This document shows positions 1,430 to 31,359 of a stretch of DNA of 32,000 nt, piece by piece. The DNA comes from a virus. The stretch covers positions 90,001 through 122,000 of the IMG/VR virus record IMGVR_UViG_3300015608_001846. One strand, written 5' to 3'. Under the pieces are notes generated by a model. It saw only the letters and a program-made list of their open reading frames with translations, searched no databases and was not told where the DNA came from. Position 1 is the stretch's first letter, and every line of letters begins with the position of its first letter. The translations under genes and the position numbers were made by a program.

Positions 1430-2713
1430 CTATTCCTTCGAGTCCTGCATGCCCTCTTCGACAGCTGACGCAGATGAAACCGGTTGCTGTGAAAATGCAG
1501 GGTCATTTTTCAGTTCGTTCCACTTATTGAGCAAGGCACGTTTATACGCACGCTCATCAGTTGCAGTGGCTTCTTGCAACGATCCTTCTTTGCCTGTGAT
1601 GGTGAACTGCGAACGAGCAGTATCGATCTTGACTGGGTACACGATGCCGTCTCTACCTGCGCGGTTTTTGGCTATGTACAGCCTTCCCCACCCTGTCGAT
1701 TTTTCATGGGCCTTTCGAGAGACGCTCAGGACCACATCTGCGACCATTGCCTTGCCGTAGGCTTCACTCATGTTACCTAGGTCGACGATGTCAGAGTTCG
1801 AACCCTCCTTGTTCGACTGTGACGCAGTCCAGATCGGTAATTGCTTTTCACCCGCAAAGCCTCGCAGCTCTTCATAGATCAGCTTGAGCTCGTGGCGGAG
1901 TGAATCATACTGGCGGGTCGACCTCATGATGTCCGCGTAATCGATGATGATCAGTCCGGGTCGAAACCCCTTCAGCTCCAGGCGCTCGATGTGACTACGA
2001 ATCGTGTAGATCGTTGCCGTGTTTGTCGGAAAGTACTTGATCTTGAGGTGACCCAGCTTCATCGCTGCATACTTTTCCTTGATGTCTTTTTCTTTGTCAA
2101 TGACGTCATTCGAGTCAATCTCACACAGGTTTGAATCGTAACGGATTCCAACCTGGGTCTCTGACAGCTCAAACGTATAGTGCAACACGTCGATGTTGTT
2201 TCTTAACGCATTGGCACCCAACATCGTCAAGAAGTGACTGTTGTGTGACAACACGTTATCTGCGAAATATGAGTGTGCAATCGACACCTGCATGTCACAA
2301 AGACGCTCAACCTCGTCGATCAATTGTACCTCTTCAACCCTACGAATACCATCACGTGTAATGATCAGATCACCACGTGTAAGATCGCCCGTCTTTGTCC
2401 AAACAGACGAACTGCCGACCTTGCACAATACAATATGCTCAGGAGAGCATTGAAGGTATGGAATGCAGTCCTCGAGGACACCGATGCGTGTTGTTCGATG
2501 GAATACTCTCAACTGTCGTTCGGGCTTCGTCCAACGAAAACCTTCAATGGGATAGAATCCATCTAACGACAAAACCTCAACGCTCCATGTATTCGGGATG
2601 AAGCTGTCTCCTGATTCATCGGTCTGGTGCGCTTGCTGCGGGAAGTCGATCGCATCAAACAAATCGCCCAACCTGATCGTTTCCTGTACTTCACTGAATT
2701 CGATCGAAAGCAT
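1430..2713 (-). CDS. Replicative DNA helicase (T4 gp41/DnaB-like), C-terminal fragment: HINT/intein domain (2713-2240) followed by the C-extein (2239-1433)
   Basis: This is track ORF 1430..2749. The best start is ATG 2713, with AGGA 6 nt upstream. The first 158 aa look like a mini-intein: MLSIEFSEV..., block B CSPEH, block F CDMQVSIAHSYFA, block G VLSHN. Next comes the +1 Ser and the helicase core HFLTMLGANALRNNIDVLHYTFELSETQVG, Walker B LIIIDYADIM, SQSNKEG and KNRAGRDG. By eye this aligns to T4 gp41 immediately after its GKS P-loop. Confidence 0.85.
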   Translation of the reverse strand: MLSIEFSEVQETIRLGDLFDAIDFPQQAHQTDESGDSFIPNTWSVEVLSLDGFYPIEGFRWTKPERQLRVFHRTTRIGVLEDCIPYLQCSPEHIVLCKVGSSSVWTKTGDLTRGDLIITRDGIRRVEEVQLIDEVERLCDMQVSIAHSYFADNVLSHNSHFLTMLGANALRNNIDVLHYTFELSETQVGIRYDSNLCEIDSNDVIDKEKDIKEKYAAMKLGHLKIKYFPTNTATIYTIRSHIERLELKGFRPGLIIIDYADIMRSTRQYDSLRHELKLIYEELRGFAGEKQLPIWTASQSNKEGSNSDIVDLGNMSEAYGKAMVADVVLSVSRKAHEKSTGWGRLYIAKNRAGRDGIVYPVKIDTARSQFTITGKEGSLQEATATDERAYKRALLNKWNELKNDPAFSQQPVSSASAVEEGMQDSKE

Positions 2714-3732
2714 TCTTGATCCTCGATTTCTGCGAATCTTTGCCTGCACGCCACTCGCATTCCCATACCACCACGACGCAGTAACCCTCGTTCAACAGAA
2801 ACTTTAATTTCCGCGAGTTGCGATCTAAGATCTTTGAGACGTTACACCCATAGAGAGGATGCACATCTTCAGGATGCCAGTCCATGCAGTCGTGCGCGTG
2901 CCACATGCACCCGAAATGCTCGACTATAGTCTTTGTAACATCATCGAGCACATCAACATTCCAACGCTTCAATCCTACGTTGAACCTTGCATGCTTAGCA
3001 AACGACGCAACGAACTCTGCTATTTCCTTCTCGGGGATTGATCGCTGCGTTGGATGACGCAAGTGATGAGCGTTTGCGATCTTCTCAAGCGCTTTATCAG
3101 TGTGGTGTTTGCCGAACATCGGATGTTTTTTGCCCGTGCGACCGTAACAAGGCGTTAACATCGTAGCCTCTTCTATGGTCACTCCGGCACGCCGAGCGAT
3201 CGATACCAACGACATCGGATTACGATCGCTTGTGTTATTTGCGCTCCGGAGCGCACGAGTGGCATCGTTGTTGCCTTTTAATGACTGTTCTCGTTGAAAT
3301 TCTGCAATCTTTTTAATGGCCTCTTGTACGTTGTAACCTTTTCTTGTCCAATGCTTGATCTCTGAGGGGAAAGAACGCTTCTCAATGAATGCAGCGTGAT
3401 TGTTAGGATCGTTGAACCACAAGCGTGTTCGCTGTGCAGACTCAAGACGTTGTTTTTCTGACATTTGCTGCACTGCATGCCCTGGGAACATCTCTCGGTA
3501 ATCACGCATCACCATCGCATGCGTACGAGTAATGTGAGAGATCAAAGATCCCATCGATTCACGTTTGCATAGTTGGCATTGAAGTGGTTTCAACGAGTTC
3601 GTCTGTTTCGACGATGTCTCGAGCGTAGATGATGCCTCGTTTGGTGTTGATGCGTTCCCAGGGTTTGTAGCGTCGACCGTTAATGGTGATACACGTGTAT
3701 TTGACATGCACATAAGTATCACGATGTGAACA
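2240..3732 (-). mobile_element. Intervening element in the helicase Walker-A codons: intein coding sequence interrupted by a free-standing homing endonuclease gene ('fractured gene' arrangement)
   Basis: The N-extein ends GVGK (Lys codon 3735-3733). It is followed by Cys 3732-3730. The intein ends HN (Asn 2242-2240) and the C-extein begins with Ser 2239-2237. The three ORFs in this span use three different reading frames. Confidence 0.8.
2691..3722 (-). CDS. Free-standing homing endonuclease: C2H2 zinc finger + NUMOD3-like motif + Vsr-like (very-short-patch-repair type) nuclease domain
   Basis: Motifs are CQLCKRESMGSLISHITRTH (C2H2-like) and GKKHPMFGKHHTDKALEKI (NUMOD3-like). The C-terminal WNVDVLDD...IVEHFGCMWHAHDC...YCVVVVWECEW resembles the Vsr GCFWHGH and WE motifs. 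The true start is probably downstream of the track start, for example TTG 3593, five codons before the zinc finger. The reason is that 3594-3722 shows the genome-typical C-ending codons (atc, acc, aac, tac, gac, gtc) only in the helicase frame. Confidence 0.75.
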   Translation of the reverse strand: MILMCMSNTRVSPLTVDATNPGNASTPNEASSTLETSSKQTNSLKPLQCQLCKRESMGSLISHITRTHAMVMRDYREMFPGHAVQQMSEKQRLESAQRTRLWFNDPNNHAAFIEKRSFPSEIKHWTRKGYNVQEAIKKIAEFQREQSLKGNNDATRALRSANNTSDRNPMSLVSIARRAGVTIEEATMLTPCYGRTGKKHPMFGKHHTDKALEKIANAHHLRHPTQRSIPEKEIAEFVASFAKHARFNVGLKRWNVDVLDDVTKTIVEHFGCMWHAHDCMDWHPEDVHPLYGCNVSKILDRNSRKLKFLLNEGYCVVVVWECEWRAGKDSQKSRIKNAFDRIQ

Positions 3733-4365
3733 TTTCCCTACGCCGGTCGGTGCCACGATGCACCCGATCTCACCCGCTCCGAGCCCACCGTTCAAGATCT
3801 CTTTCTTGTCGAGCTCGGGTATGCCGGTCGATATCGCGTTGCGGGTTTGTCTCATGAACCTCGAATCGATGTCGTTGATGAAATCGTGGCCTAGAGAAGG
3901 GGTCGTCCCGACGCAGACAGCCTTCTTGATACCCTCAACGATCTCTTCATAACGTTCAGCTTGGATCTGATCGACGGCCGTCTCGAGCGCTTGCTTCAGT
4001 GCCTGCTTACGACAGAAATCGAGTGACTTCTCCTTGACGTAAGGAAGGTCGCCCGGGTCTGGGTTGGTTCGAACTCGCGTCAAGTAGTCCACAACTTGTT
4101 CACGAAGGATGACATCGGTGCCGACCTTCAGTTCGTCACGGACAATCGTGACGAGCATCTGCAACGACGGAAAGACCTTGTACGATCGCGAGTAGTTGAA
4201 GTAACGATCAGCGAGGAACACCAGGTACTTGAGGTCAAGGTACTCAACCTTGAAGACCTCCATCATCTGCTCGGCCCACACACGATCCATCAACAAGGCC
4301 TGGACAACCTTTTCCTGAAAGGCCTTTCCGTAGGAGTTAAACGACGCTTGCGTATTTTCGTTCAT
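3559..4365 (-). CDS. Replicative DNA helicase (T4 gp41/DnaB-like), N-terminal fragment (211 aa) ending inside Walker A, plus a 57-aa Cys-initiated tail
   Basis: The extein ends ...ELDKKEILNGGLGAGEIGCIVAPTGVGK. The tail is CSHRDTYVHVKYTCITINGRRYKPWERINTKRGIIYARDIVETDELVETTSMPTMQT, followed by a stop. The start of the tail, C-x3-D-T-x-V, resembles intein block A. The start ATG 4365 overlaps the FEN stop as ATGA. Confidence 0.85.
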   Translation of the reverse strand: MNENTQASFNSYGKAFQEKVVQALLMDRVWAEQMMEVFKVEYLDLKYLVFLADRYFNYSRSYKVFPSLQMLVTIVRDELKVGTDVILREQVVDYLTRVRTNPDPGDLPYVKEKSLDFCRKQALKQALETAVDQIQAERYEEIVEGIKKAVCVGTTPSLGHDFINDIDSRFMRQTRNAISTGIPELDKKEILNGGLGAGEIGCIVAPTGVGKCSHRDTYVHVKYTCITINGRRYKPWERINTKRGIIYARDIVETDELVETTSMPTMQT

Positions 4366-8878: not shown

Positions 8879-9124
8879 TCAACGTTTCTTCGTTCGATTC
8901 TTTTTACGCCCAACCGCATCGGGGTTCATCCCAAGAGGGAGTGAGTACCCTGCGACGGCTCCGGACCCTGCCGCTGAGAACTCTTGGACGCACTCCTCAG
9001 TACCTTCGTCCTCATGTCCTTCGTCACTGTGTTCCGATGAATCCGCTGAAACAAGCTGTTGCGGCACTCGAGCCAGGCGGGCCTCAATGACCGTTCTGAT
9101 GTAGCGTCGCAACAAGTTGTGCAT
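8879..9124 (-). CDS. Small acidic protein (81 aa) with the shared N-terminal helix motif and a basic C-terminus
   Basis: The sequence runs MHNLLRRYIRTVIEARL..., then an acidic block SSEHSDEGHEDEGTEE, then AGYSLPLGMNPDAVGRKKNRTKKR. There is no recognisable domain. Confidence 0.5.
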   Translation of the reverse strand: MHNLLRRYIRTVIEARLARVPQQLVSADSSEHSDEGHEDEGTEECVQEFSAAGSGAVAGYSLPLGMNPDAVGRKKNRTKKR

Positions 9125-9811: not shown

Positions 9812-11032
9812 TCAAGCATGTACATTGACGTCTGACACCGTGAGGTGAAACTTCTGAACGTATCCTGGAACGCTGACGCTGTTGATCGCTTTCACGACAT
9901 CGACATCATCAGCTGGCACGTCGAGGAACAGCCCATCGTGCAACAAAAAGATCGGTCGGACGCTGGGCGCACTTTCAACCAACCTAGCGATGACCTGTCG
10001 GAAACCGAGAAGGGCAACGTCGACGCCCGTTGATTGAGCATAGTAGTTCAACATCACGTGGTTCAACGGCTCATCAATCAACACGTGTCGACCGTAACGA
10101 TTGACGATGTGACCGGATGACAAAAACTGCGCCCGGATGCGTTCAAGCAGCTCAGAAGTGTTGAAGTACGACCTGACTCGCGCCATGTATCGATCGAGCT
10201 CCTTGCTACCCATGTTGAGTCGAACAGCTAGGGCATGCCTAGAGCTGCCGTACAGCTCACAGATGACAATGCCCTTGACGACCTGGCGTGGGGCATCACC
10301 GACCTCACGGGCGATGTGCGAATACAGGTCGGGTTCATCGCACCGTCGACCGGCTTCATACAACAGGATCCTCGGTTCTAAGGCGGCAAAGTCGATCGCC
10401 ATGATCCTGCCACCTGTCGTCGACGGTGCGATGATGCCTCGTTGTTCCTTTTTAAGCGTCAGTATGTTAGGACCAGATGCTACTGTCATCCGACCCGTCA
10501 AGGTCCCAAACCGGTTGTACGACACTTGACCAGCAAAACCGTGACGGTCGGGTTCGAACGTTGCCAAGGCATGTAGGTTGCCCGCGCCAGAATCGACTGC
10601 AGCCTGCCACTGGCTTCGATCGATACGTGCTCGGTGCAGGCTGCCCAAAACCTCATTCCCTGGCACCCAAGTGTCATTGTAATAATTCACAGGCAAGGAA
10701 GGGACGGCCTCTACCGCTCGAGCCACCAGTGTTTTTACAAAGTCACGGTATGCTGCATCAGGCATCATCCTGTGCCATGGCGGGTGTGATGACCAGTTCG
10801 AACCGGACAACAATGGCACTGTCGCCTTGACAAACCTCTCCGGCGGGTTGATGTCGATGGCAACTTGACCCAACCTCAACAGGGTGTCTAGACAACGCGA
10901 GTGACCAGGCTTGACAGTCCCTGTCAGGTGCCAAGAGTCGGGTGGCACCGTCGACGTCCAGACAAAACGTGCATCATCACAGACGATGTGTCGATCGGTG
11001 CCCAACAGGCACGAGTCGATGCAAACTCGCAT
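9812..11032 (-). CDS. Family A DNA polymerase, polymerase domain only (406 aa, no recognisable 3'-5' or 5'-3' exonuclease domain)
   Basis: Motifs are YNRFGTLTGRMTVASGPNILTL (TGRLSS/PNLQN-like), IMAIDFAALEPRILL (motif A), RQVVKGIVICELYGSS (motif B), YYAQSTGVDVAL and IFLLHDGLFLDV (motif C). Confidence 0.85.
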   Translation of the reverse strand: MRVCIDSCLLGTDRHIVCDDARFVWTSTVPPDSWHLTGTVKPGHSRCLDTLLRLGQVAIDINPPERFVKATVPLLSGSNWSSHPPWHRMMPDAAYRDFVKTLVARAVEAVPSLPVNYYNDTWVPGNEVLGSLHRARIDRSQWQAAVDSGAGNLHALATFEPDRHGFAGQVSYNRFGTLTGRMTVASGPNILTLKKEQRGIIAPSTTGGRIMAIDFAALEPRILLYEAGRRCDEPDLYSHIAREVGDAPRQVVKGIVICELYGSSRHALAVRLNMGSKELDRYMARVRSYFNTSELLERIRAQFLSSGHIVNRYGRHVLIDEPLNHVMLNYYAQSTGVDVALLGFRQVIARLVESAPSVRPIFLLHDGLFLDVPADDVDVVKAINSVSVPGYVQKFHLTVSDVNVHA

Positions 11033-11074
11033 AGTACGTACAGATCTTAGCCTACGCGTGTAGCAGTTTACACA

Positions 11075-11113
11075 TCACTTCTTTGACTGTGTATCGATCT
11101 CTTGTACTGATTT
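11075..11113. repeat. Direct repeat copy A (39 bp), downstream boundary of the HEG cassette
   Basis: The plus-strand sequence is tcacttctttgactgTgtatcgatctcttgtactgaTtt. It matches 11887-11925 at 37 of 39 positions. Confidence 0.9.
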
Positions 11114-11890
11114 GTGCCTTCGTCGCGGCGCTGACAAGATCCCTAGTTCAACGAGCCTCTCACGGTTCCATAGTTCAGAGTTCTTGTATTTTTCATGGAA
11201 CCATTCCCACTTTTCCTTTCCGACGTGACCACCTTTTCGTTCAAAAGTTCCCTTGATCTCAATGTACGTGTCTGCAAATGTACCGTCCAAGACGTAAAGA
11301 TCAACGTAGTACGTTCGTCCTTGAGGCGTCTGGAACGCTAGTTGCCATCGAAAATCGATCTGATTCGTGTTTAACCAATCCACGACGGCTAGTTCATAGC
11401 CACCAACGCAATGAATGTCTTCGCCAGACTTCCAATGTTTTACGACCGTGCAAAACCGGCTAGCAGCGATTCCATTTAATCTTCCTCGAGCTGGATGTCC
11501 GCTGTATCCATTTAAGACGGTGTACGGCATCGCTACAAATTCACCATGATCTTTGTCAAGAAATCTCATCTTTACGTGTGAATTCACATAACACTGTCCG
11601 GGTGACAATGTTACATTGTCACCGTGATGAAGGGTTAATTTTTGCTCGATCTCTTCTGGCGTTAAGAGAGAACGTTTCCAATTAACATGCTTGTGACCCG
11701 TGTGTCGGCGACCGTTGCACACAGATTTGACCTGAGCATGCCATACGCCATACGTTTTATCGATAAACCGCGCACGTTTATTCGCTGAAATATACGACGA
11801 TTCGTCAATCGTAACAGTGTCACCGTGTACTTGTCTAAGCCTAGACTTGATCTCTTCGATCGAAATTTTTCTTGACACAAAGATTGTCAC
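11075..11890 (-). CDS. Free-standing homing endonuclease-like protein: two N-terminal HGD-type DNA-binding repeats + PD-(D/E)XK nuclease core
   Basis: The repeats are IEEIKSRLRQVHGDTVTIDESSYISANKRARFIDKTYGVWHAQV and PEEIEQKLTLHHGDNVTLSPGQCYVNSHVKMRFLDKDHGEFVAMP. The C-terminal core has GYELAVVDWL ... YYVDLYV ... TYIEIKG (E ... D ... ExK). The GTG start overlaps the upstream stop. The last 12 codons duplicate the end of the upstream structural gene. Confidence 0.65.
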   Translation of the reverse strand: MTIFVSRKISIEEIKSRLRQVHGDTVTIDESSYISANKRARFIDKTYGVWHAQVKSVCNGRRHTGHKHVNWKRSLLTPEEIEQKLTLHHGDNVTLSPGQCYVNSHVKMRFLDKDHGEFVAMPYTVLNGYSGHPARGRLNGIAASRFCTVVKHWKSGEDIHCVGGYELAVVDWLNTNQIDFRWQLAFQTPQGRTYYVDLYVLDGTFADTYIEIKGTFERKGGHVGKEKWEWFHEKYKNSELWNRERLVELGILSAPRRRHKSVQEIDTQSKK

Positions 11891-11925
11891 TTCTTTGACT
11901 GCGTATCGATCTCTTGTACTGACTT
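11887..11925. repeat. Direct repeat copy B (39 bp) = 3' end of the 993-aa structural gene
   Basis: The plus-strand sequence is tcacttctttgactgCgtatcgatctcttgtactgaCtt. Both copies encode KSVQEIDTQSKK followed by a stop. The repeat period is 812 bp. Confidence 0.9.
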
Positions 11926-14868
11926 CAGTTGTTGCTTGATGTACTCGACGACCGTAGGAGCCCCTTCGAACCTACCGTATGCATCGTAGAACGACAATGT
12001 CATTTGAGATTCGAACTTTCCAGGTGTGATAGAATGAGTCAATCCAGTAAGAATGTAGATGTTATCAATCGTCGTCCCCGTGTTGAAGTCAATGAAGAAC
12101 ATCTGACCGTTGTTCAACAACGGACAACCCAAGGCGTTGATCGTCAACGCTGCTGGGATGACACGTAGCGGCAACCCGCCCACACCGGAACCATTGGGCA
12201 TGGCAACCGATGGCTTGCCTGACTTGCGTGACACCGTCTGCATCTGGACGACGCTAAGCAGGGGGTCTTGCTTGGAGGCCAGGTTGGCTGACGTCACCAC
12301 AGTACCATTCATGCCGTAGACGATCGTCGGCACCATCCTTGACACGTATTCCTTGATGTCCGGATTGCTGATGATCCTACCTGGCACCCCCGTCTCTGTC
12401 TGAGACGACTGCGTCCGATCGATCCTTCCGTCTGGGGACAGAGACGGAAGGAGCTCTTTCCACACATCGACCGCCTGTGCCTTGTCGCTGGACCGTTGCT
12501 TGAGATAGTCTTTGGTGATGCCCAGTGTTTCAGCATCGATGAACTCTGGGCCCGATTCGGCATCCCCGCGCAGGATCTGTCCTGGCAACTTGTACGGGTT
12601 GTTCGTCTTGTCAAAGACGTGGATTCGCATGATCTTACGATAGTTGCCGGCGATGTCCTCATTGGGCGCTGGGTTCAGCGTAAACTGCTCGAACTGTTGC
12701 GATGTCTCAAGGCGCCGCAACAGGTCGCTGTTGTTTCCCGATGATGCCCACAGCGTTTCGATGTACATTTCGACCTGCGGCATCTTGAAAGGACCTTGTG
12801 CGATGTTGATACCTGCAAGAGCGCTTTCGTAGGCCTGTTCAGCTCCCTCCTTGAACTTCTGATCGACTTTGTTGGCAGGGTCATAGGGCGCAAAGTACGA
12901 CCGAAATCCGTAACCGGGAGCGCGTGTGTCGCTGACCTGAGCATCGATGATCAGGCGAAAGAACTCCTCGATCGATAGCCTCTCAGATCCCTTCCTTTCA
13001 ACGTACTCGCGGTACTGGTCGAGGAACACCGGCATGTCGATAGGAAACTCAGCGAGGTTGGTTCCAGCAGCCGCTCCCGCGTGGTCGTTGACCTGGTAGA
13101 AGAACAGTTGCATCTCGTCGATACCACCGATTTGTTGGAACGAGTTGCCGATGAAGACAGACATCAGCTTGCCCAGCGACACCAGTTTCTTCCCAAACTC
13201 CTGACGATCTGTTTCACTACGGTAGGCATTGACGACCTCGACTAGGTTAGAGAACGGGTGAGGGGCCGCCTTCGCGTCAGTGGCTGCGACCTTGTCCTTT
13301 GCAGCAATCGGCAAAAACGGATCAGGTTCTTTGGTGACGCTGGTCAACAAACCTGAGGCCACGCGTGACGCGTCGCTACGTAATTGTGCCTTGAAGTCAA
13401 GGTTCTGCTTGTTGTCAGTCTTGTAGTACGTCTCAAGGGCGTTCAATAGTCCCTGTGCGGCATCTTTATCGATCTTACCGCCGGGCCTAGCAAAGCTCTC
13501 CTTCATCGCCTTGATCGAGTCCTGGATGTCCTTGCCCGACATGTCGGGCAGCGCACCGCGCTCTGCAGACTCAATCAACATGAACCCACGGATCTCTCGG
13601 TTGACGCCCTCAGTCGGACCGATACCCAACGCAGTCCGGTACTCGCTGATCTGTTGACCCAGTTCGCGAAGCTTCTTGATGGTGTTCAACGTGCCATCGT
13701 TTTTGTCACTCGTCCTCGCCGTTCTCATCTCAGGTATGCCTTTGGTCCACAGCTCAATGTTGAGCGTGACCTGACCGACTGGATCAAACGAGAACTGAGA
13801 ATTTACGATGCCGTAGGCCTCCCGCGTCAGCATGTTGCCATTGATGAAATCAGAATAGTTGCCCGAGCCGGCGACCTGCGCTCCAGATGGCTCAGGCGGA
13901 TGACGCCAACCATAGGTGATCCACACAGTGGGAGCTGTCTGCGCATTCTGGTAGATCTGAGGCCTGACCAGGTCGCTGATCTCAGCCATCCTTGATCTGT
14001 CATGTAGCTTCAGCGTCAACGTAGCCTTCTTGTATGAATACATTCCGACTGTCGGCGTCACAGAAACGTTGAAACTCTCGATCGACATCAGTGGCCGAAA
14101 CGGGTCTAGGACATCGACATAGCGAGCGCTGTGACTAACCTGTTGTGGATTGATGAGCGTCTGAGGAGATGTAAACATCTCCATGCCGGCCAAGGTGTGT
14201 TGTTGGCCGAAGGCCACGTCGTGTACTTCACGTGCAGCGATCATCGCAGCATCTGCTGATTTGTTATCTGCTCCCGCTGACGGATCAGAGCCCAGCAAGA
14301 ACTTCATCAGCCCAGGGGACTGAAGGTTGACAGGATCGACACGATTGAACACGAACTCGACCTCGAGGATGGGCACCATCCTCGAGGCGATCAGGCTCGG
14401 AACGTAGTTCATGAACATCTCGATGCGTTCAGCGTTCCGCGTCGCCGGGCTCAGGTAACCTGAATTGCTGAGCAGGATGCACATGGGTTTCTTGGGATCG
14501 ACGTCCTGGCCGATGATCTCTCGAAAACTGACGTTATTTATGACAGTCTTTCCGTCGTTGCCCACAGCAACGTTCTGTGATTGGCCCAACGCATTTACAC
14601 GTTTACCGGTGCTGCTATAGAAGCTGATCGTCCTCTTGAACTGCTCGAGCTTTTCAGGTGACGCATTGGACGCTAGCTCTTCAAGGCGATTTCCCAACGC
14701 ATCGACGGTCAATACGCCGCCGGGTCCGACGTTGTAAAGAGCGTCGAGCAGCTCTTTCGTAAAGTTTGTCGTCTCTATTGAACCTTGCGACAGCTTCTGC
14801 GCTCCCAACAGGTCTGCGGGAGTGATCATTCGATAGATCGATTCGAGGGTTGATACGTCGACAGCCAT
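11887..14868 (-). CDS. Large virion structural protein (993 aa), probably baseplate or hub associated
   Basis: A long uninterrupted ORF, translationally coupled (TGATG) to the LysM-like gene in the tail module. I recognise no enzymatic motif. The function is inferred from position only. Confidence 0.55.
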   Translation of the reverse strand: MAVDVSTLESIYRMITPADLLGAQKLSQGSIETTNFTKELLDALYNVGPGGVLTVDALGNRLEELASNASPEKLEQFKRTISFYSSTGKRVNALGQSQNVAVGNDGKTVINNVSFREIIGQDVDPKKPMCILLSNSGYLSPATRNAERIEMFMNYVPSLIASRMVPILEVEFVFNRVDPVNLQSPGLMKFLLGSDPSAGADNKSADAAMIAAREVHDVAFGQQHTLAGMEMFTSPQTLINPQQVSHSARYVDVLDPFRPLMSIESFNVSVTPTVGMYSYKKATLTLKLHDRSRMAEISDLVRPQIYQNAQTAPTVWITYGWRHPPEPSGAQVAGSGNYSDFINGNMLTREAYGIVNSQFSFDPVGQVTLNIELWTKGIPEMRTARTSDKNDGTLNTIKKLRELGQQISEYRTALGIGPTEGVNREIRGFMLIESAERGALPDMSGKDIQDSIKAMKESFARPGGKIDKDAAQGLLNALETYYKTDNKQNLDFKAQLRSDASRVASGLLTSVTKEPDPFLPIAAKDKVAATDAKAAPHPFSNLVEVVNAYRSETDRQEFGKKLVSLGKLMSVFIGNSFQQIGGIDEMQLFFYQVNDHAGAAAGTNLAEFPIDMPVFLDQYREYVERKGSERLSIEEFFRLIIDAQVSDTRAPGYGFRSYFAPYDPANKVDQKFKEGAEQAYESALAGINIAQGPFKMPQVEMYIETLWASSGNNSDLLRRLETSQQFEQFTLNPAPNEDIAGNYRKIMRIHVFDKTNNPYKLPGQILRGDAESGPEFIDAETLGITKDYLKQRSSDKAQAVDVWKELLPSLSPDGRIDRTQSSQTETGVPGRIISNPDIKEYVSRMVPTIVYGMNGTVVTSANLASKQDPLLSVVQMQTVSRKSGKPSVAMPNGSGVGGLPLRVIPAALTINALGCPLLNNGQMFFIDFNTGTTIDNIYILTGLTHSITPGKFESQMTLSFYDAYGRFEGAPTVVEYIKQQLKSVQEIDTQSKK

Positions 14869-15161
14869 CAGCTCACCAAACGTGCGACCGCTGCAAGTTC
14901 AGGGACCTTGATGATGGTGCCCGGGGGCACCTGCAAGCCCCATCCGATGTCGCTAGCTGCGGCAAGGACCCACCAATAACTAGCGTCACCGTAAAAGCTA
15001 CCCGCAAGGGTGTCAAGGCGTTCAGCGCCCCGAAGGATCACTGTCTTGACCGGCAGCTTGCCGTCCTTGATTGCAGCACGAATGTGTTGGATCGCAAATG
15101 ACGTACCAAACTGCGCGCCGAAATCAATCCTAGGAGTCCTGGCATACCTGCTGAAAGGCAT
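14868..15161 (-). CDS. LysM-like tail/baseplate protein (P2 gpX-like)
   Basis: VILRGAERLDTLAGSFYGDASYWWVLAAASDIGWGLQVPPGTIIKVP fits the LysM pattern (x-V-x-x-G-D/E-x-L..IA..yyG..........l..G..i.iP). The size and position match gpX-type proteins of contractile tails. Confidence 0.65.
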   Translation of the reverse strand: MPFSRYARTPRIDFGAQFGTSFAIQHIRAAIKDGKLPVKTVILRGAERLDTLAGSFYGDASYWWVLAAASDIGWGLQVPPGTIIKVPELAAVARLVS

Positions 15162-25696: not shown

Positions 25697-26068
25697 TCAA
25701 CGCAGGCGATCGAGCACGCGTGCTGCCAGATCGATGACAGTTTGTTCGACGTCAAACTTTTGCTTGAATGCATCAACGATCGCTTCTTCAAGCTTGGTTC
25801 GATCGACCTCCGGGCCCACAAGGCCTTGCAAACCCGCTGCGACGCTGTCAGCGTCAAAGCCTTCCAACAGACTCTCAACCTCGTCGACGATGAGATCCGC
25901 GACGCTCGAGGCGGCTTGAACCGTCGATCTGTCTTTCTTTGCGTAACCGAACCCTGTAGCTGGGTTCTTGCGACCGGTGTGCTGCGGGCGGCGCGCCTGT
26001 GTCAGGCCAGCAGCAGTGTCGATCTCTTCCTTGACGATCTGTCGAAGTTGTTGCTGTGTGATCTTCAT
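25697..26068 (-). CDS. Small acidic helical protein, member 'b' of the N-terminal-motif family (123 aa)
   Basis: It starts MKITQQQLRQIVKEEIDTA at ATG 26068, which overlaps the stop of member 'a' as ATGA. The upstream extension in the track is unlikely. Confidence 0.6.
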   Translation of the reverse strand: MKITQQQLRQIVKEEIDTAAGLTQARRPQHTGRKNPATGFGYAKKDRSTVQAASSVADLIVDEVESLLEGFDADSVAAGLQGLVGPEVDRTKLEEAIVDAFKQKFDVEQTVIDLAARVLDRLR

Positions 26069-26400
26069 CTTGTTGGTTCCCATTCTCCCATGCTGTACTG
26101 CGGATCCCAAACGTAGACCCGACCATCTGCTGCTTTGACCTCGATGCGGCCGTCGCCCAATAGGACAAATTGGTCATCACAATCTTCGATCAGGTACCTG
26201 ATCCAGGCGTTAAACGCCTGAGAATCAAACTTCTTGAGGTCAAAGACGCCGCCCAATGGTTGTCGCATCTTGGGTCGAGCGTCGTTCGGAACAGAAACGC
26301 CTCGACCCGATCGAGGTGCTTGGGCTCGCGACCTGTTGGTCGCTTTGGTGATCTCTTCGCTGATGATCTTTCGAATCAAAGAACCAGTAGACAATTTCAT
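26065..26400 (-). CDS. Small protein, member 'a' of the N-terminal-motif family (111 aa)
   Basis: It starts MKLSTGSLIRKIISEEITKA... AAAGGG lies upstream of the ATG. Confidence 0.6.
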   Translation of the reverse strand: MKLSTGSLIRKIISEEITKATNRSRAQAPRSGRGVSVPNDARPKMRQPLGGVFDLKKFDSQAFNAWIRYLIEDCDDQFVLLGDGRIEVKAADGRVYVWDPQYSMGEWEPTR

Positions 26401-26485: not shown

Positions 26486-26761
26486 TCAGTAATCGATGTC
26501 GGAGTTAGCGCCTTCGTAACTGTCAAGTTCACTAGAGACTGCATCCTCGACGAGCTCTCGAAGCCACCTCGCAGCCTCTTCAGGAGCAGTAAACTTGCCT
26601 AACAACGCGTTAAACAAAGCACTAACAGCATCATACAGACCGGCATCATGTGCCATTCCAGACACATCCTCGAAGTTGGCAGCTTCGTTAAGTGAACGCG
26701 AACGCAAAGTCTTGATTTCTTGCTTGACGATCTGTCGAAGCTGCTGTTGTGTAATTCGTAT
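26486..26761 (-). CDS. Member 'c' of the N-terminal-motif family; no canonical start codon at the family-aligned position (possibly decaying)
   Basis: The frame reads (ATA)I-RITQQQLRQIVKQEIKTLRSRSLNEAANFEDV...SDIDY. It shares 18 identical nt (cttcgacagatcgtcaag) with member b. ATA 26761-26759 aligns with the ATG of b. The first canonical start is TTG 26707, which would remove the motif. Confidence 0.45.
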   Translation of the reverse strand: MRITQQQLRQIVKQEIKTLRSRSLNEAANFEDVSGMAHDAGLYDAVSALFNALLGKFTAPEEAARWLRELVEDAVSSELDSYEGANSDIDY

Positions 26762-26769
26762 GGTATTAT

Positions 26770-28116
26770 CTATCTCAGTCCCAGGACTAAATTTCCACAG
26801 CCAAAGATCATTTCAACTCCTGCTTCATCTGCAACTTGTTGCTGCGTCAGCCCTCTTGAAGGATCAGCCTTGTAACGAAAGCGATCGTAGCGGTGGACGC
26901 TGTCGGTCCACCAGAACCTAGGCGCAGTCTCGCGTAGGACCTCAAACCCCGCAGCGAGGTAGCCCTTGCCTGAACCGATCCTACGATCAACGTACGTCAT
27001 CAATCCCAAGGCGCCAGACGCCTTGGCCCAGGCAAGGGCACGACGAGATAACCTTGACAGTGAACCTGGGACGTTGCCGGCTGTCGCAAAGCGTGAGACC
27101 TCATAGTGATCAGCGTTGCCCCTGTGAAAGGGACGACGCAACGACATTGCAGCAAGGATTTTACCCTCGTGGACGAGGCCCCAAGCGACGGTCGCCCGTG
27201 TGTCACCATCGATGTGATGGTCGTCAAAGAACTGCCTCCTGGCAGCGGGTGTCAGCTGCTCGACCTTGCACTGTCGGGCTCCCACCAGCTTGGGCTCCTG
27301 ACCCAAACGGTGCTTGATCATCCTTTCAACGATCGCCCGCTTGTCGCGCCACTCGTCCTCAAACACACGCAGGACATCGATCCCAGCGGCGTCACAGGCC
27401 CGCTGCTTATCAACAGTTCGCTTGGGCACCGCGCGAGGGCCACTGTGCCAGTACAGGCCGTCATACTCCACGGCAAATTTTCTGGAGGGGACGTAAACGT
27501 CGAGTTCCTTCGGAGCGATCACGGTGCGATCTGACAGCACCGCGTCGGGAGCCAACGACCTGACGAAGTCATAGATTTCGGACTGGGCGTTCAAGGCTGA
27601 ACCCAGGTCGAACGACGTCGGACCTGTGACCCGCGAGTCCATGCGCGAGCTGGGGTCTCGGATCGTGGTTGTCACAGTGGACCTTTGCGGACCTGTCGCG
27701 TGCAGGCACGCGACCGGCGGAGACGGCGACTCAACGAGCGTGGGCGCGGCTGACACGACGTCTCCGGTGCGCGTGTTTTTTAAGCCTGCGTTCCACGCCT
27801 TGATCCTTCCTGTCTTGAAGCCGTCGAGGCGCTTCTGGACAAAGCCCCTCTGCCGTTCAGGATCCTTGTAGACACTGTCGACGTTGGCATTGTGACCACG
27901 GATGAACCTCGAGACGTACCCCTTCTTCCAACCGGCCCAGGCGACTGCGCCGCCACAACCACATGCACAAACGGGCGCGGACGCTGAGCGCACGGTTCTG
28001 AGGTACAGCCCCTCGTCGGCCTCGCTTCCGTGTTCGTGCATGTGATGATGCAGGAACCGCAGTTCCTGTCCAAAGTCGCGATCACAATTGGGACACTTGA
28101 TACGAATGAATGCCAC
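26770..28116 (-). CDS. Free-standing homing endonuclease (C2H2 zinc finger + Cys-rich/NUMOD-like region + Vsr/DUF559-like PD-(D/E)XK core + conserved C-terminal domain)
   Basis: Motifs are CPNCDRDFGQELRFLHHHMHEH, CACGCGGAVAWAGWKKGY..RGHNANV, AWNAGL, and the nuclease core ELDVYVPSRKFAVEYDGLYWH...VFEDEW. The C-terminal ~190 aa (HIDGD, SRLSRR, MTYVDRRIGSGKGYLAAGF, PRFWWTD) are clearly paralogous to 29629-31359. Confidence 0.8.
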   Translation of the reverse strand: MAFIRIKCPNCDRDFGQELRFLHHHMHEHGSEADEGLYLRTVRSASAPVCACGCGGAVAWAGWKKGYVSRFIRGHNANVDSVYKDPERQRGFVQKRLDGFKTGRIKAWNAGLKNTRTGDVVSAAPTLVESPSPPVACLHATGPQRSTVTTTIRDPSSRMDSRVTGPTSFDLGSALNAQSEIYDFVRSLAPDAVLSDRTVIAPKELDVYVPSRKFAVEYDGLYWHSGPRAVPKRTVDKQRACDAAGIDVLRVFEDEWRDKRAIVERMIKHRLGQEPKLVGARQCKVEQLTPAARRQFFDDHHIDGDTRATVAWGLVHEGKILAAMSLRRPFHRGNADHYEVSRFATAGNVPGSLSRLSRRALAWAKASGALGLMTYVDRRIGSGKGYLAAGFEVLRETAPRFWWTDSVHRYDRFRYKADPSRGLTQQQVADEAGVEMIFGCGNLVLGLR

Positions 28117-28994
28117 AAGAGTTATATTACTACCTGGATCAATTTAGATTGGTGATGGGAAAGAAATTTGATTTTGTTGCGATGGACGTCGACTGGGGTG
28201 AATTCACCGCAGACTACGTCTCTGTTTACTGTTACGTCGACACGACGCTCGATGATAACACACCTGTGTACGTTGGGTTGGGTTCTGGTCCTCGCATCAG
28301 GCACAAGCGTGCAAGAAATCAGAAACACCTGAACATTGCACTGAAGCACAGGATCAAGAGGACAGTCGTCGCCTCGTACTCCAAGGACGCTAAGCAGCTA
28401 GCGTGCGACAACGAGAAGAGGCTGATCGCTGAGCTAGGGACGTTCAGCACTCGCACGAACAAGGGCTGCAACTTCACCCTGGGAGGCGATGGGACCGCTG
28501 GGCACATCATCTCAGAAGAAGAAAAGGAACGTCGGCGCGCGCGACAGACGGGCGACGGTAACGTCGCAAAACGTCCGGATGTTCGAAGAAAGATCAGCGA
28601 ATCACAACGCGGGAAGAAATTCTCAAAAGAGAGACGACAAAATATCTCAGAGGCAAAGAAAGGAAAAGCAATGCCTGATGAAACACGTCAAAAGATCAGC
28701 AAGTCAATGTCTGCGACGATGTCAAGGAATCATGCCCAGCGCAACGCCCACCTGGTCCCATTGCACCAAGAGATCATCAGGTTGCGTAATTCAGGGTTAA
28801 GCATCATCGATGTCATGACTCAGGTTTCAGCAATGTTCAAAAGAGAGGTCAAGTACTCCAGCGTTACAAACACGGTCCACGTTCACAAAAAAGGACAGTG
28901 TCAGACGTGTAACAACAACCCAATAGAAGTTGATCGATCCAGAGCACAACAAACGACACAAGCATCCGATCAGTTAACTGATTTGAATGCTTGA
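28110..28994 (+). CDS. GIY-YIG family homing endonuclease with NUMOD3-like repeats (Seg / I-TevI-like)
   Basis: The region VSVYCYVD...TPVYVGLGSGPRIRHK...NEKRLIAELG is GIY-YIG-like. Repeats are RRKISESQRGKKFSKERRQNISEAKKGKAMPDETRQKISKSMS. The start may be ATG 28155 (MGKKFDF) rather than 28110. The gene is visibly more A/T-rich than the flanking tail genes. Confidence 0.7.
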   Translation: MPQELYYYLDQFRLVMGKKFDFVAMDVDWGEFTADYVSVYCYVDTTLDDNTPVYVGLGSGPRIRHKRARNQKHLNIALKHRIKRTVVASYSKDAKQLACDNEKRLIAELGTFSTRTNKGCNFTLGGDGTAGHIISEEEKERRRARQTGDGNVAKRPDVRRKISESQRGKKFSKERRQNISEAKKGKAMPDETRQKISKSMSATMSRNHAQRNAHLVPLHQEIIRLRNSGLSIIDVMTQVSAMFKREVKYSSVTNTVHVHKKGQCQTCNNNPIEVDRSRAQQTTQASDQLTDLNA

Positions 28995-29628: not shown

Positions 29629-31359
29629 ATGGGTGCCGTTAAAGGTAAGAAGCTCGAGACACTAACGTGTCCGATTTGCCACATTTTTTCGTCGAAGCGC
29701 TTGACCAACTTTGAGGATCATCTAGCGCTCGAACACCACACGACAGCAAGAATATTATGGAACTCATTGAACAACGGACCTATTCTTTGTGGCTGCGGTT
29801 GCGGCAATGAAGCGCCCTTCCACGGCTGGAAGCACGGTTACGGCAAGTTCATCATCGGTCACAATGCAAATGTCTACAGCTCGTATGCACCCGAACGGGC
29901 AGCAGAACTGATCAAACAACGAAGTGAATCCCTTGCAGGAAAGACGGGATGGGCAAAGGGTCTGACCAAGGAATCTGACGACAGGATCGCAAAACGAGCG
30001 AAAGCAACATCCGAAGGTCGACGACGAGCATTCATCGATGGAGATATCGTCGCCTGGAATAAAGGTCTGACCAAGGACAATGATCCCAGGGTCGCAGCAG
30101 CCGCCGTAGCTCAACAACAGCGATTCGAGGCTAAAGACGTTCGACCTTGGGCTGAAGGCAAGACTGAAGCGGGTGATGAATGCATTCTTCGAAAAAACAA
30201 TGCACTTCGAAAAAGGTACGCCAAAGGAGAGCTTGAACCTTGGTACAAGGGAAAGACGATCGCGTCTGAACCTCGATTAGAAAAACTCTGGCAACACCGT
30301 GATCCTGTCAAAGAGTATGCTGGTATCCGATGGACGGATGATGAGATCAGGGGAAAACTTGCAGGGAACATGCAACTCATCCTGCAAGACATCGACGGTT
30401 ACAGAAATGATCGGATCCCGGCGCTGGTTGTCATGTGCAGGACGTGCAGTGAAACATCGAAGGTTTCACTTGTCTTTGCAAGAAACGATCGCTGCCATCG
30501 ATGTAACCCTACGAGCTCGGCCGGTCAGAATCAGATCGCTGATTGGTTGGAATCACTGGGACTCAAGGTCGGTCGCAATGTCAAGGGCATCATCGGAAAT
30601 CGTCAAGAGCTTGACGTATACGTTCCTTCGCACAAGCTAGCGATCGAATTCAATGGACTCTATTGGCACAATGAAGCAGGTGGTAAGGGACCCAAGTACC
30701 ATCAAAATAAGTCGAATCGGTGCGCTGAACTCGGGATCACACTGCAACATGTCTTCGAAGACGAATGGTATGAACGACCTGACATCGTCAAATCGATGAT
30801 CATGCATCGACTGTCAATGACACCCAAGCGTACTTCTGCTCGTAAGTGCAATCTTCGTGAGGCAACGATCGATGAACGTCGAACGTTCTTCGAAGCAAAT
30901 CACATTGATGGTGATGTGCCTTCAACGAAGGCATGGTGCCTCGTCGACGAAGAAGAGATCGTAGCGTGTATCTCGATACGAAAACCGTTTCACAAATCAC
31001 AAAGCAAATTGATCGAAATCGCTAGGTTTTCGACCAAAACGTACACTTCTTGCGCCGGCGCCCTAAGCAGATTGATGCGATGTGTGGTTGCATACACTCT
31101 AGAACACAAGCTCGCGGGAGTGATGACGTACGTTGACACACGCTTCGGTAATCGAGGAAAAGGTTACTGTAGCGCAGGTATGACATTCACAAAAGAAACA
31201 GAACCTAGGTTCTGGTGGACAGACAACCACCATCGATTCAATCGATTCAAGTTTCGAGCCGACAGAGGGAGGCAGATGTCAGAAGCTCAGGTCGCAGAAG
31301 CTGCTGACGTCGTCAAGATCTGGGGTTGCAAGAATCTTGTGTACCAAATCAACGTCTGA
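29629..31359 (+). CDS. Free-standing homing endonuclease, paralogue of 26770-28116, with four tandem NUMOD-like W-x-K/E-G-x-T modules
   Basis: Motifs are CPICHIFSSKRLTNFEDHLALEHH and CGCGCGNEAPFHGWKHGY..IGHNANV. The repeats are GWAKGLTKESD, AWNKGLTKDND, PWAEGKTE and PWYKGKT. The nuclease core is ELDVYVPSHKLAIEFNGLYWH...VFEDEW. The C-terminal domain has HIDGD, SRLMRC, MTYVDTRFGNRGKGYCSAGM and PRFWWTD. Confidence 0.8.
   Translation: MGAVKGKKLETLTCPICHIFSSKRLTNFEDHLALEHHTTARILWNSLNNGPILCGCGCGNEAPFHGWKHGYGKFIIGHNANVYSSYAPERAAELIKQRSESLAGKTGWAKGLTKESDDRIAKRAKATSEGRRRAFIDGDIVAWNKGLTKDNDPRVAAAAVAQQQRFEAKDVRPWAEGKTEAGDECILRKNNALRKRYAKGELEPWYKGKTIASEPRLEKLWQHRDPVKEYAGIRWTDDEIRGKLAGNMQLILQDIDGYRNDRIPALVVMCRTCSETSKVSLVFARNDRCHRCNPTSSAGQNQIADWLESLGLKVGRNVKGIIGNRQELDVYVPSHKLAIEFNGLYWHNEAGGKGPKYHQNKSNRCAELGITLQHVFEDEWYERPDIVKSMIMHRLSMTPKRTSARKCNLREATIDERRTFFEANHIDGDVPSTKAWCLVDEEEIVACISIRKPFHKSQSKLIEIARFSTKTYTSCAGALSRLMRCVVAYTLEHKLAGVMTYVDTRFGNRGKGYCSAGMTFTKETEPRFWWTDNHHRFNRFKFRADRGRQMSEAQVAEAADVVKIWGCKNLVYQINV

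Follow-up and report, generated by a model that had tools for sequence, protein, structure and literature searches.

A 32,000-nucleotide (nt) stretch of DNA from an uncultured phage, positions 90,001 to 122,000 of the IMG/VR virus record IMGVR_UViG_3300015608_001846 and here called the window, contains a 39-bp direct repeat that encloses a predicted homing endonuclease gene (HEG) and duplicates the end of the gene upstream of it. We favor the view that the repeat is the scar of one irregular acquisition of the HEG, by aberrant homing or illegitimate recombination, and not the product of a normal mechanism (probability roughly 0.55). An earlier note on this DNA had recognized the repeat and regarded the duplication as a built-in property of the element. 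Its view of the unit as an insertion, its assignment of the nuclease class and its claim of an intact host gene were sustained by the present analysis, whereas the intrinsic duplication mechanism and the immunization of one copy were not.

Plus coordinates are used for all positions, and the genes of the locus lie on the minus strand. The repeat copies at 11075-11113 and 11887-11925 agree at 37 of 39 positions with a period of 812 bp, as the earlier note had reported, and a search of the window with up to three mismatches recovered only these two copies, where 0 were expected from 100 shuffles. Translation of each copy in the frame of its own open reading frame (ORF) confirmed that both encode KSVQEIDTQSKK followed by TGA. 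The upstream copy forms the last 12 codons and the TGA of an ORF of 993 amino acids (aa), and the downstream copy forms the same part of a 271-aa ORF. The two mismatches, AAG/AAA (Lys) and ACG/ACA (Thr), were likewise confirmed to be silent. The two copies and their two differences recur in seven contigs (L043, L044, L045, L049, L050, L051, L052), which derive from different samples and assemblers and share 99.8-99.95% identity with the window, and six further near-identical contigs cover one copy each. The longest near-identical contigs are about 322.6-322.9 kb, which indicates that the uncultured phage (~323 kb) is a jumbo phage. The features of the locus are as follows.

11887..11925, minus strand: upstream repeat copy, AAG…ACG variant, functional end of the 993-aa gene (repeat search, translation, population contigs).
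11075..11113, minus strand: downstream repeat copy, AAA…ACA variant, last 12 codons and stop of the HEG ORF (repeat search, translation).
11075..11878, minus strand: predicted free-standing homing endonuclease ORF, ending at the TGA of the downstream copy (ORF list, homologues, family alignment).
11492..11875, minus strand: two tandem DUF723/CapR-type DNA-binding repeats, residues ~6-133 (PHROG 559/681, PF05265 in homologues, DNA repeat D5, AlphaFold).
11138..11449, minus strand: PD-(D/E)XK domain, T7-endonuclease-I-like, residues ~148-251 (profile match, family alignment, Foldseek).
11114..11134, minus strand: seven-codon linker SAPRRRH between …LGIL and the duplicated tail (homologue ends; low model confidence).
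11887..14868, minus strand: 993-aa gene, baseplate/tail module by context (ORF list, synteny, neighbor matches).
11033..11074, minus strand: 42-nt spacer from the tail copy to the polymerase start, beginning TGTGTAAAC (comparison with HEG-less relatives).
9812..11032, minus strand: gene of a 406-aa family-A DNA polymerase fragment, right neighbor in all relatives (family matches, synteny).

The 812-bp unit comprises the nuclease ORF only, with no integrase or recombinase gene inside, and a repeat search detected no terminal inverted repeats bounding it. The maximal ORF starts at 11890 and encodes 271 aa. The earlier note had taken this GTG, which overlaps the TGA of the 993-aa gene, as the start, but it is only the first possible one. 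Close homologues all begin M-S-R-K-[IL]-[ST]-[IL]-[ED]-E-[IV]-K, which matches the second GTG at 11878 (MSRKISIEEIK), 9 nt past the stop of the 993-aa gene. Thus, the GTG at 11878 is probably the real start of a 267-aa protein. The 271-aa ORF gave no Pfam match of its own. Residues 6-133 match the DNA-binding part of the PHROG 'endonuclease' families 559 and 681, and homologues bear PF05265 (DUF723). This N-terminal half is built from two tandem units of ~67 residues, visible in the DNA as repeat D5 with a spacing of 201 nt, and in the AlphaFold model (mean predicted local distance difference test (pLDDT) score, 86.8) each unit folds into a helix and three strands with pLDDT of at least 90. 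DUF723 and the related CapR are modular DNA-binding units of phage homing endonucleases (PMC10448857).

A profile built from 20 family members matched T7 endonuclease I (1m0d_A) at E=1.6e-4. The match pairs profile positions 165-240 with chain residues 5-75 and brings the SxxE, D, and ExK motifs into register. In the family alignment the catalytic residues D197, E211, and K213 are invariant and E166 is nearly invariant. The model shows the alpha-beta-beta-beta-alpha-beta fold of restriction endonucleases. The top Foldseek match was TnsA, followed by Bax1, the Can2/Card1 nuclease domains, NucS, and VRR_NUC, and only TnsA reached E=2e-3. The profile match to T7 endonuclease I and the top fold match to TnsA support the earlier assignment to the PD-(D/E)XK nucleases. 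An Rfam scan of the whole window gave no match, hence no group I or group II intron, and the gene is positioned after the stop codon of the 993-aa gene, outside any intron or intein. As judged from these sequence and model comparisons, the 812-bp unit is a putative free-standing HEG. Its GC content is 45-47% against 52-57% in the flanks (about 9 points poorer), which makes the cassette foreign in composition to its surroundings. In 11 population contigs the ORF is undamaged, with a single site of single-nucleotide polymorphism (SNP) and no frameshift. The family is large, comprising 8260 cluster representatives (50% identity) at E<=1e-3 and 500 at E<=1e-30, and no biochemical description of it was found in PDB, Pfam, or the literature searched. 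Among cultured phages, no homologue of the region or of the 993-aa protein was found, and the nuclease gave only two weak matches.

The C-terminus of the nuclease departs from that of its family. Members normally stop after '…GIL' (…LGIL), and of the 150 top representatives most reach no further than the last position of the profile. The window nuclease has no stop of its own there and runs on for 19 residues, which are SAPRRRH plus KSVQEIDTQSKK. The linker and tail are predicted to be disordered in the AlphaFold model (pLDDT 54-57). Since the family ends at GIL and the tail is also of low confidence in the model, the tail is not native to the nuclease. The SAPRRRH linker presumably contains the illegitimate junction, or else is sequence that once flanked the HEG on its 3' side. 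By manual reading of the sequence, the other two frames also run into a stop ahead of the polymerase start. The in-frame fusion would be an accident with a 1-in-3 chance, for which no selection is needed.

The tail has its native place in the upstream gene. The conserved core of the 993-aa protein ends …AYGRFEGAPTVVEYIK and is followed by a lineage-specific tail, QQLKSVQEIDTQSKK. The C-terminal tails of its homologues are hypervariable in sequence and length, and a search for closer relatives of this C-terminus yielded fragments only, with up to 64% identity. The HEG-less metagenomic relative L134 ends …EYVKQQLLLAQEVDTQAKKK (its tail reads EYVKQQL…QEVDTQAKKK), which is homologous to …EYIKQQLKSVQEIDTQSKK* of the window, indicating that the tail is native to the lineage of the upstream gene. 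L134 has the tail as a single copy, with 36 nt separating it from the polymerase gene. This is the empty site that the earlier note had predicted, seen here in a relative whose protein is only ~59% identical to that of the window. L134 differs from both repeat copies at both variable positions.

The downstream copy has kept the native surroundings of the gene end. The TGTGTAAAC after its stop fits a TGTA[AG]A motif that stands directly past the stop of this gene in HEG-less relatives, the 42-nt spacer is typical of empty sites (gaps of 30-50 nt), and the right edge of the repeat coincides exactly with the stop codon, the same point as the HEG position in L038 and L039. The motif TGTA[AG]A(C), at 11066-11074 of the window, occurs at the same place in L001, L002, L004, L013, L020, L033, L038, L134, and L135, following the HEG stop in L038, and is a candidate for a phage-specific regulatory signal preceding the polymerase gene.

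Comparison with relatives established the unit as an insertion, as the earlier note had proposed. The gene order 1036-aa gene, 97-aa gene, 993-aa gene, polymerase fragment, and HD protein is common to 36 IMG/VR relatives. Among the 33 IMG/VR loci that hold both a 993-aa homologue and the polymerase gene, the two are directly adjacent in 27 (gap of up to about 110 nt, mostly 30-50 nt), and the remaining six carry other, unrelated inserts of 0.3-1.6 kb. L134 and L136 are also empty at the nuclease site. The nuclease occupies this site in the window and in L037, L038, L039/L040, and L041. These loci contain its four closest homologues (P0002-P0005, 54-56% identical), all at this site, which indicates a free-standing HEG lineage specific to the 993-aa/polymerase junction. 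The claim that the host gene was left intact was upheld. IMG/VR and the Joint Genome Institute (JGI) metagenomes were scanned for a HEG-less or excised form of the same strain with exact and wobble-tolerant patterns, and these scans, like look-ups by exact protein, returned HEG-bearing genomes only.

Unrelated inserts at the same junction include L005:8865-9949, with a 354-aa ORF, and L009:8841-9470. L011, L022, and L031 carry four tandem paralogous ORFs of ~85 aa, about 1.6 kb past the 993-aa homologue, and extra ORFs lie behind the HEG at L041:4987-5912. Because unrelated inserts occupy the junction in other relatives, it is a general insertion hot spot.

The duplication itself is not shared by the same-site orthologues. 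In L037, L038, L039, and L041 the nuclease gene directly follows the stop of the upstream gene, with an overlap of nuclease start and upstream stop in L038. Each of the four nuclease genes has its own stop right after '…LGIL', and no gene-end repeat is present. A search for decayed duplications in these four orthologues and in other insert-bearing relatives gave none above shuffled controls. The earlier note had assigned the duplication to the cassette and had stated that related genomes with the endonuclease ORF and no duplicated gene end would speak against this; these four orthologues (54-56% identical) are such genomes. It is thus concluded that the duplication is a lineage-specific accident and not part of the way in which the element moves.

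When ~75 further loci of the nuclease family were scanned, a flanking repeat above background was detected only in L117 (IMGVR_UViG_3300031999_006279). This repeat of 24 nt, TAATGAAAAT[T/C]GTAGAAAATTGTA, lies at L117:3475-3498 and L117:4298-4321 and consists of a TAATG stop/start overlap and the first 7 codons of a downstream glycosyltransferase-like gene. The copy in front of the HEG belongs to a dead remnant of 16 codons and the other lies at the HEG stop, so that L117 is the mirror image of the window case. The single difference between its copies, ATT/ATC, is silent. The paralogous HEG of L117 encodes 251 aa with Zn-ribbon-type repeats and the same nuclease domain. The L117 case indicates that such scars recur but are rare and vary in length. 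No close relatives of L117 were found that could supply its empty site. A flanking match in L071 was dismissed as low-complexity A-rich sequence. The five-repeat family member at L071:4001-5264 has an in-frame stop just past the catalytic IEIK (…IEIKRIFLG*), with the rest in another frame, and this nuclease gene appears to be decaying.

An irregular acquisition might have proceeded as follows. The recipient, lacking the HEG and belonging to the same strain or one very close to it, would have suffered a break towards the 3' end of the upstream gene, ~39 bp upstream of the point where the HEG is inserted, and a HEG-carrying genome would have served as the repair template. On the left side, homologous exchange would have copied in the donor's gene end and the HEG. 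On the right side, an illegitimate join within or just past the 3' end of the HEG would have been made onto the unresected recipient end, by which the recipient's last 12 codons, stop, spacer, and polymerase gene would have stayed in place. The outcome would be the order donor gene end, HEG, recipient gene end, and the two silent differences would be allelic differences between two functional gene copies. Such a course accounts for the right edge of the repeat at the stop codon, for the lost stop of the HEG and its short non-homologous linker, for the native context kept by the downstream copy, and, if the differences are allelic between two functional genes, for the fact that they are silent only. 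The phage also encodes UvsX/RecA-like and gp32-like recombination proteins, which we count in favor of this origin. The chance that two of two differences are silent is P = 0.04 when all substitutions are equal and P = 0.11 when only transitions are considered, so the silent-only pattern is weak evidence, which becomes somewhat stronger with the silent difference in L117.

Several points weigh against an irregular acquisition. No HEG-less genome with >90% nucleotide identity was found, so that the native copy is not identifiable and an allele difference between donor and recipient at the two positions is not demonstrable. The differences number only two, the proposed illegitimate junction bears no clear microhomology or other signature, the cut position of the enzyme is itself inferred, and an in-situ duplication followed by drift yields the same final sequence. 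In the last 400 residues of the 993-aa homologues, identity to the window was no higher near the HEG in HEG-bearing relatives; at this divergence (50-60% protein identity) co-conversion is undetectable, and the comparison is neutral.

An in-situ origin is possible but unlikely. The 39 bp would then have been duplicated within one genome at insertion, by fill-in of a widely staggered break (target-site duplication) or by a template switch, and two substitutions would have followed. The flanking repeat abuts the inserted unit exactly, L117 is a second family member with a flanking duplication of 24 nt, and the nuclease fold is common to TnsA, a transposase subunit. A transposition-type mechanism, however, yields a duplication of constant length, and the two repeats are unequal (39 versus 24 nt). 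Moreover, the repeat is missing from the four same-site orthologues and from about 75 paralogous loci, no terminal inverted repeats bound the unit, and all three differences in the window and L117 are silent, even though little or no constraint acts on one member of each pair. A DNA transposon with target-site duplication was accordingly rejected on the absence of inverted repeats, the lack of the duplication in orthologues and most paralogues, and the 24-nt length in L117; an integrase-mediated insertion with att repeats was rejected since the unit holds the nuclease ORF only.

We regard as rather improbable the proposal of the earlier note that the repeat contains the cleavage site and that silent changes immunize one copy, so that the duplication is maintained as an adaptive arrangement from which precise excision is possible. 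An arrangement of this kind would keep the host gene and the upstream context of the polymerase gene intact, and it is fixed in all sampled genomes. On logical grounds each empty-site junction survives in either copy, and a target shorter than about 41 bp needs protection; the AAG/AAA difference lies at the left edge of the repeat. The same-site orthologues nevertheless do without the duplication, and a tail that is hypervariable among relatives is ill suited as a conserved target. Neither the 13 near-identical contigs nor the pattern scans yielded an excised, single-copy form. The duplicated context showed no excess of promoter-like or terminator-like sites that would point to a regulatory role, and the predicted RNA fold of the tail, spacer, and polymerase start was not significant (z = -0.8). 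As to the silent changes, a pattern that arises by chance at P 0.04-0.11 is only weakly improbable, and an allelic difference between donor and recipient explains it more simply than immunization. An 'immunity codon' idea was also tried. In the first relatives compared, the residues before the tail read Y[IV]K-S in HEG-less and K-Q/N/K in HEG-bearing genomes, and the KQQL of the window could have been a four-codon immunizing insertion; the idea was abandoned because HEG-less L134 has KQQL and HEG-less L135 has K-G.

It is quite improbable, in our estimate, that the HEG family spreads by a 'duplicative' form of homing, in which the 24-39 bp between the cut and the insertion site are kept by the recipient and resupplied by the donor, with silent differences marking immunity. 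If it did, the repeat would report the offset between cut and insertion of the enzyme, would be the phage counterpart of the mobile endonuclease ORFs (mORFs) of fungal mitochondria, and could drive reversible excision.

A functional peptide tag is very improbable. The C-termini of the two proteins are identical and in frame, as would be expected if the nuclease had gained the 12 residues for virion incorporation or partner binding. No other member of the nuclease family bears such a tail, however, the tail of the 993-aa protein itself varies among relatives and is predicted to be disordered in the nuclease model, and an in-frame fusion has a 1-in-3 chance. Finally, an assembly artefact or chimeric contig, which the earlier note had named as a possible refutation, can be set aside: short contigs L046, L047, L048, and L053 do end at or near a repeat copy, but the seven contigs from varied samples and assemblers span both copies with the distinguishing differences.

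Regarding the flanking genes, the earlier label 'structural' for the 993-aa protein needs qualification as a label by context: the neighboring 97-aa protein matches a baseplate wedge family and a 291-aa protein matches T4_baseplate; the 993-aa protein itself gave no Pfam, PHROG, or cultured-phage match. In contig L050 alone, six silent SNPs fall within 29 nt of the 97-aa baseplate-like gene (15032-15060). The 406-aa polymerase matches only positions 110-353 of the 381-position Pfam DNA_pol_A profile and is equally short in all 36 relatives, so this group of phages may have a split or an unusually compact polymerase. Its codons 72-106 (10716-10817) contain 7 SNPs in 102 nt, 6 of them silent, among near-identical population contigs. 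The haplotypes are nested, those at 10814/10817 being common to eight contigs, of which four reach 10790 and three reach 10716, and from this patch towards the HEG no SNPs occur over the next ~560 nt. The pattern resembles a conversion patch that recombination has broken up, and it could mark a nuclease target or co-conversion tracts.

Other endonuclease-like genes are present in the window. A DnaB-like helicase is encoded in two pieces within 1430-4365 on the minus strand (268 aa at 3559-4365; 439 aa at 1430-2749). Between them lies a 343-aa ORF of a NUMOD3-containing endonuclease (2691-3722), the three reading in three frames with slight overlaps, and the helicase gene looks as if it was split by a HEG. 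Three more homing-endonuclease-like genes lie at one end of the window, at 26770-28116 (minus), 28110-28994 (plus), and 29629-31359 (plus), as judged from PHROG 3339/559 and 314 and from weak REase_MTES_1575 matches. The phage is thus rich in HEGs. A 48-nt direct repeat at 26015-26062 and 26708-26755 (83% identical) was considered as another HEG scar and rejected, as it represents a conserved N-terminal motif of small paralogous ORFs (…ITQQQLRQIVK.EI…). The motif is also found in the ORF at 26065-26400, and N-termini resembling it are seen in L134 and at the start of the 81-aa ORF at 8879-9124.

If the 39-bp repeat is indeed the scar of an irregular acquisition, it is a rare molecular fossil of homing gone wrong, showing that phage homing can finish in an illegitimate join and linking the HEGs of phages with the fungal-mitochondrial mORF gene hybrids. 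The nuclease would then also be predicted to cut ~39 bp upstream of its insertion point. The locus brings to notice a large HEG family, of thousands of clusters, whose catalytic domain resembles T7 endonuclease I. Such duplications mislead gene callers and assemblers, by way of artificially lengthened HEG ORFs and contig breaks at the repeat.

Among known systems, the free-standing HEGs of T4-like phages (seg, mob; intron-less homing) are similar in that a small nuclease gene lies beside essential genes, here a DNA polymerase gene, in that the gene is present in some and absent from other related phages, and in the modular DNA-binding repeats and a genome with its own recombinase. In the free-standing HEGs of T4-like phages, the cleavage site is expected at some distance from the insertion site, and the characterized members are GIY-YIG, HNH, or T5orf172 enzymes. 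No description of a duplicated gene end was found for them in the literature searched. The likeness to T7 endonuclease I (gp3) lies in profile-level similarity, the conserved catalytic E, D, and ExK, and the restriction-endonuclease-like fold. T7 endonuclease I, a domain-swapped dimer, is a structure-specific resolvase of four-way junctions without sequence-specific DNA-binding repeats, and the presence of such predicted repeats in the window nuclease argues for a different choice of substrate. I-Ssp6803I is a characterized PD-(D/E)XK homing endonuclease that is small, tetrameric, and intron-encoded; no detectable similarity was seen between it and the window nuclease.

The closest architecture is found in the mORFs of fungal mitochondria. 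The earlier note had started from the premise that classical intron-less homing does not make target duplications, which does not hold for mORFs, as gene-end duplication is known for them (PMC3630166). They make gene hybrids in atp6 of Allomyces macrogynus and in atp6, atp9, cox2, and nad3 of Glomus sp. (PMC3630166, citing Paquin et al. 1994). In these hybrids, the endonuclease ORF lies at the 3' end of a host gene, a C-terminal copy ahead of the ORF preserves an intact gene, and the native copy persists downstream as the second member of a direct repeat. The differences between the two are for the most part without effect on the protein sequence. The order 'inserted C-terminal, mORF, native C*-terminal' is matched in the window by the gene core, C-terminal copy, endonuclease ORF, and second C-terminal copy. 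The mORFs, however, encode LAGLIDADG or GIY-YIG enzymes in mitochondrial genomes, whereas the window holds a PD-(D/E)XK nuclease in a phage genome. Their duplicated segments are 50-280 bp long and 64-81% identical, compared with 39 bp and 95% here, and their foreign origin was shown by phylogeny, whereas the foreign copy in the window is not identifiable. The resemblance is therefore one of architecture, not of membership. No description of a gene-end duplication around an endonuclease gene was found for phages in the literature searched. The locus is an ordinary kind of element, a predicted free-standing HEG, with an unusual and informative repeat, probably a scar, that has a clear precedent outside phages.

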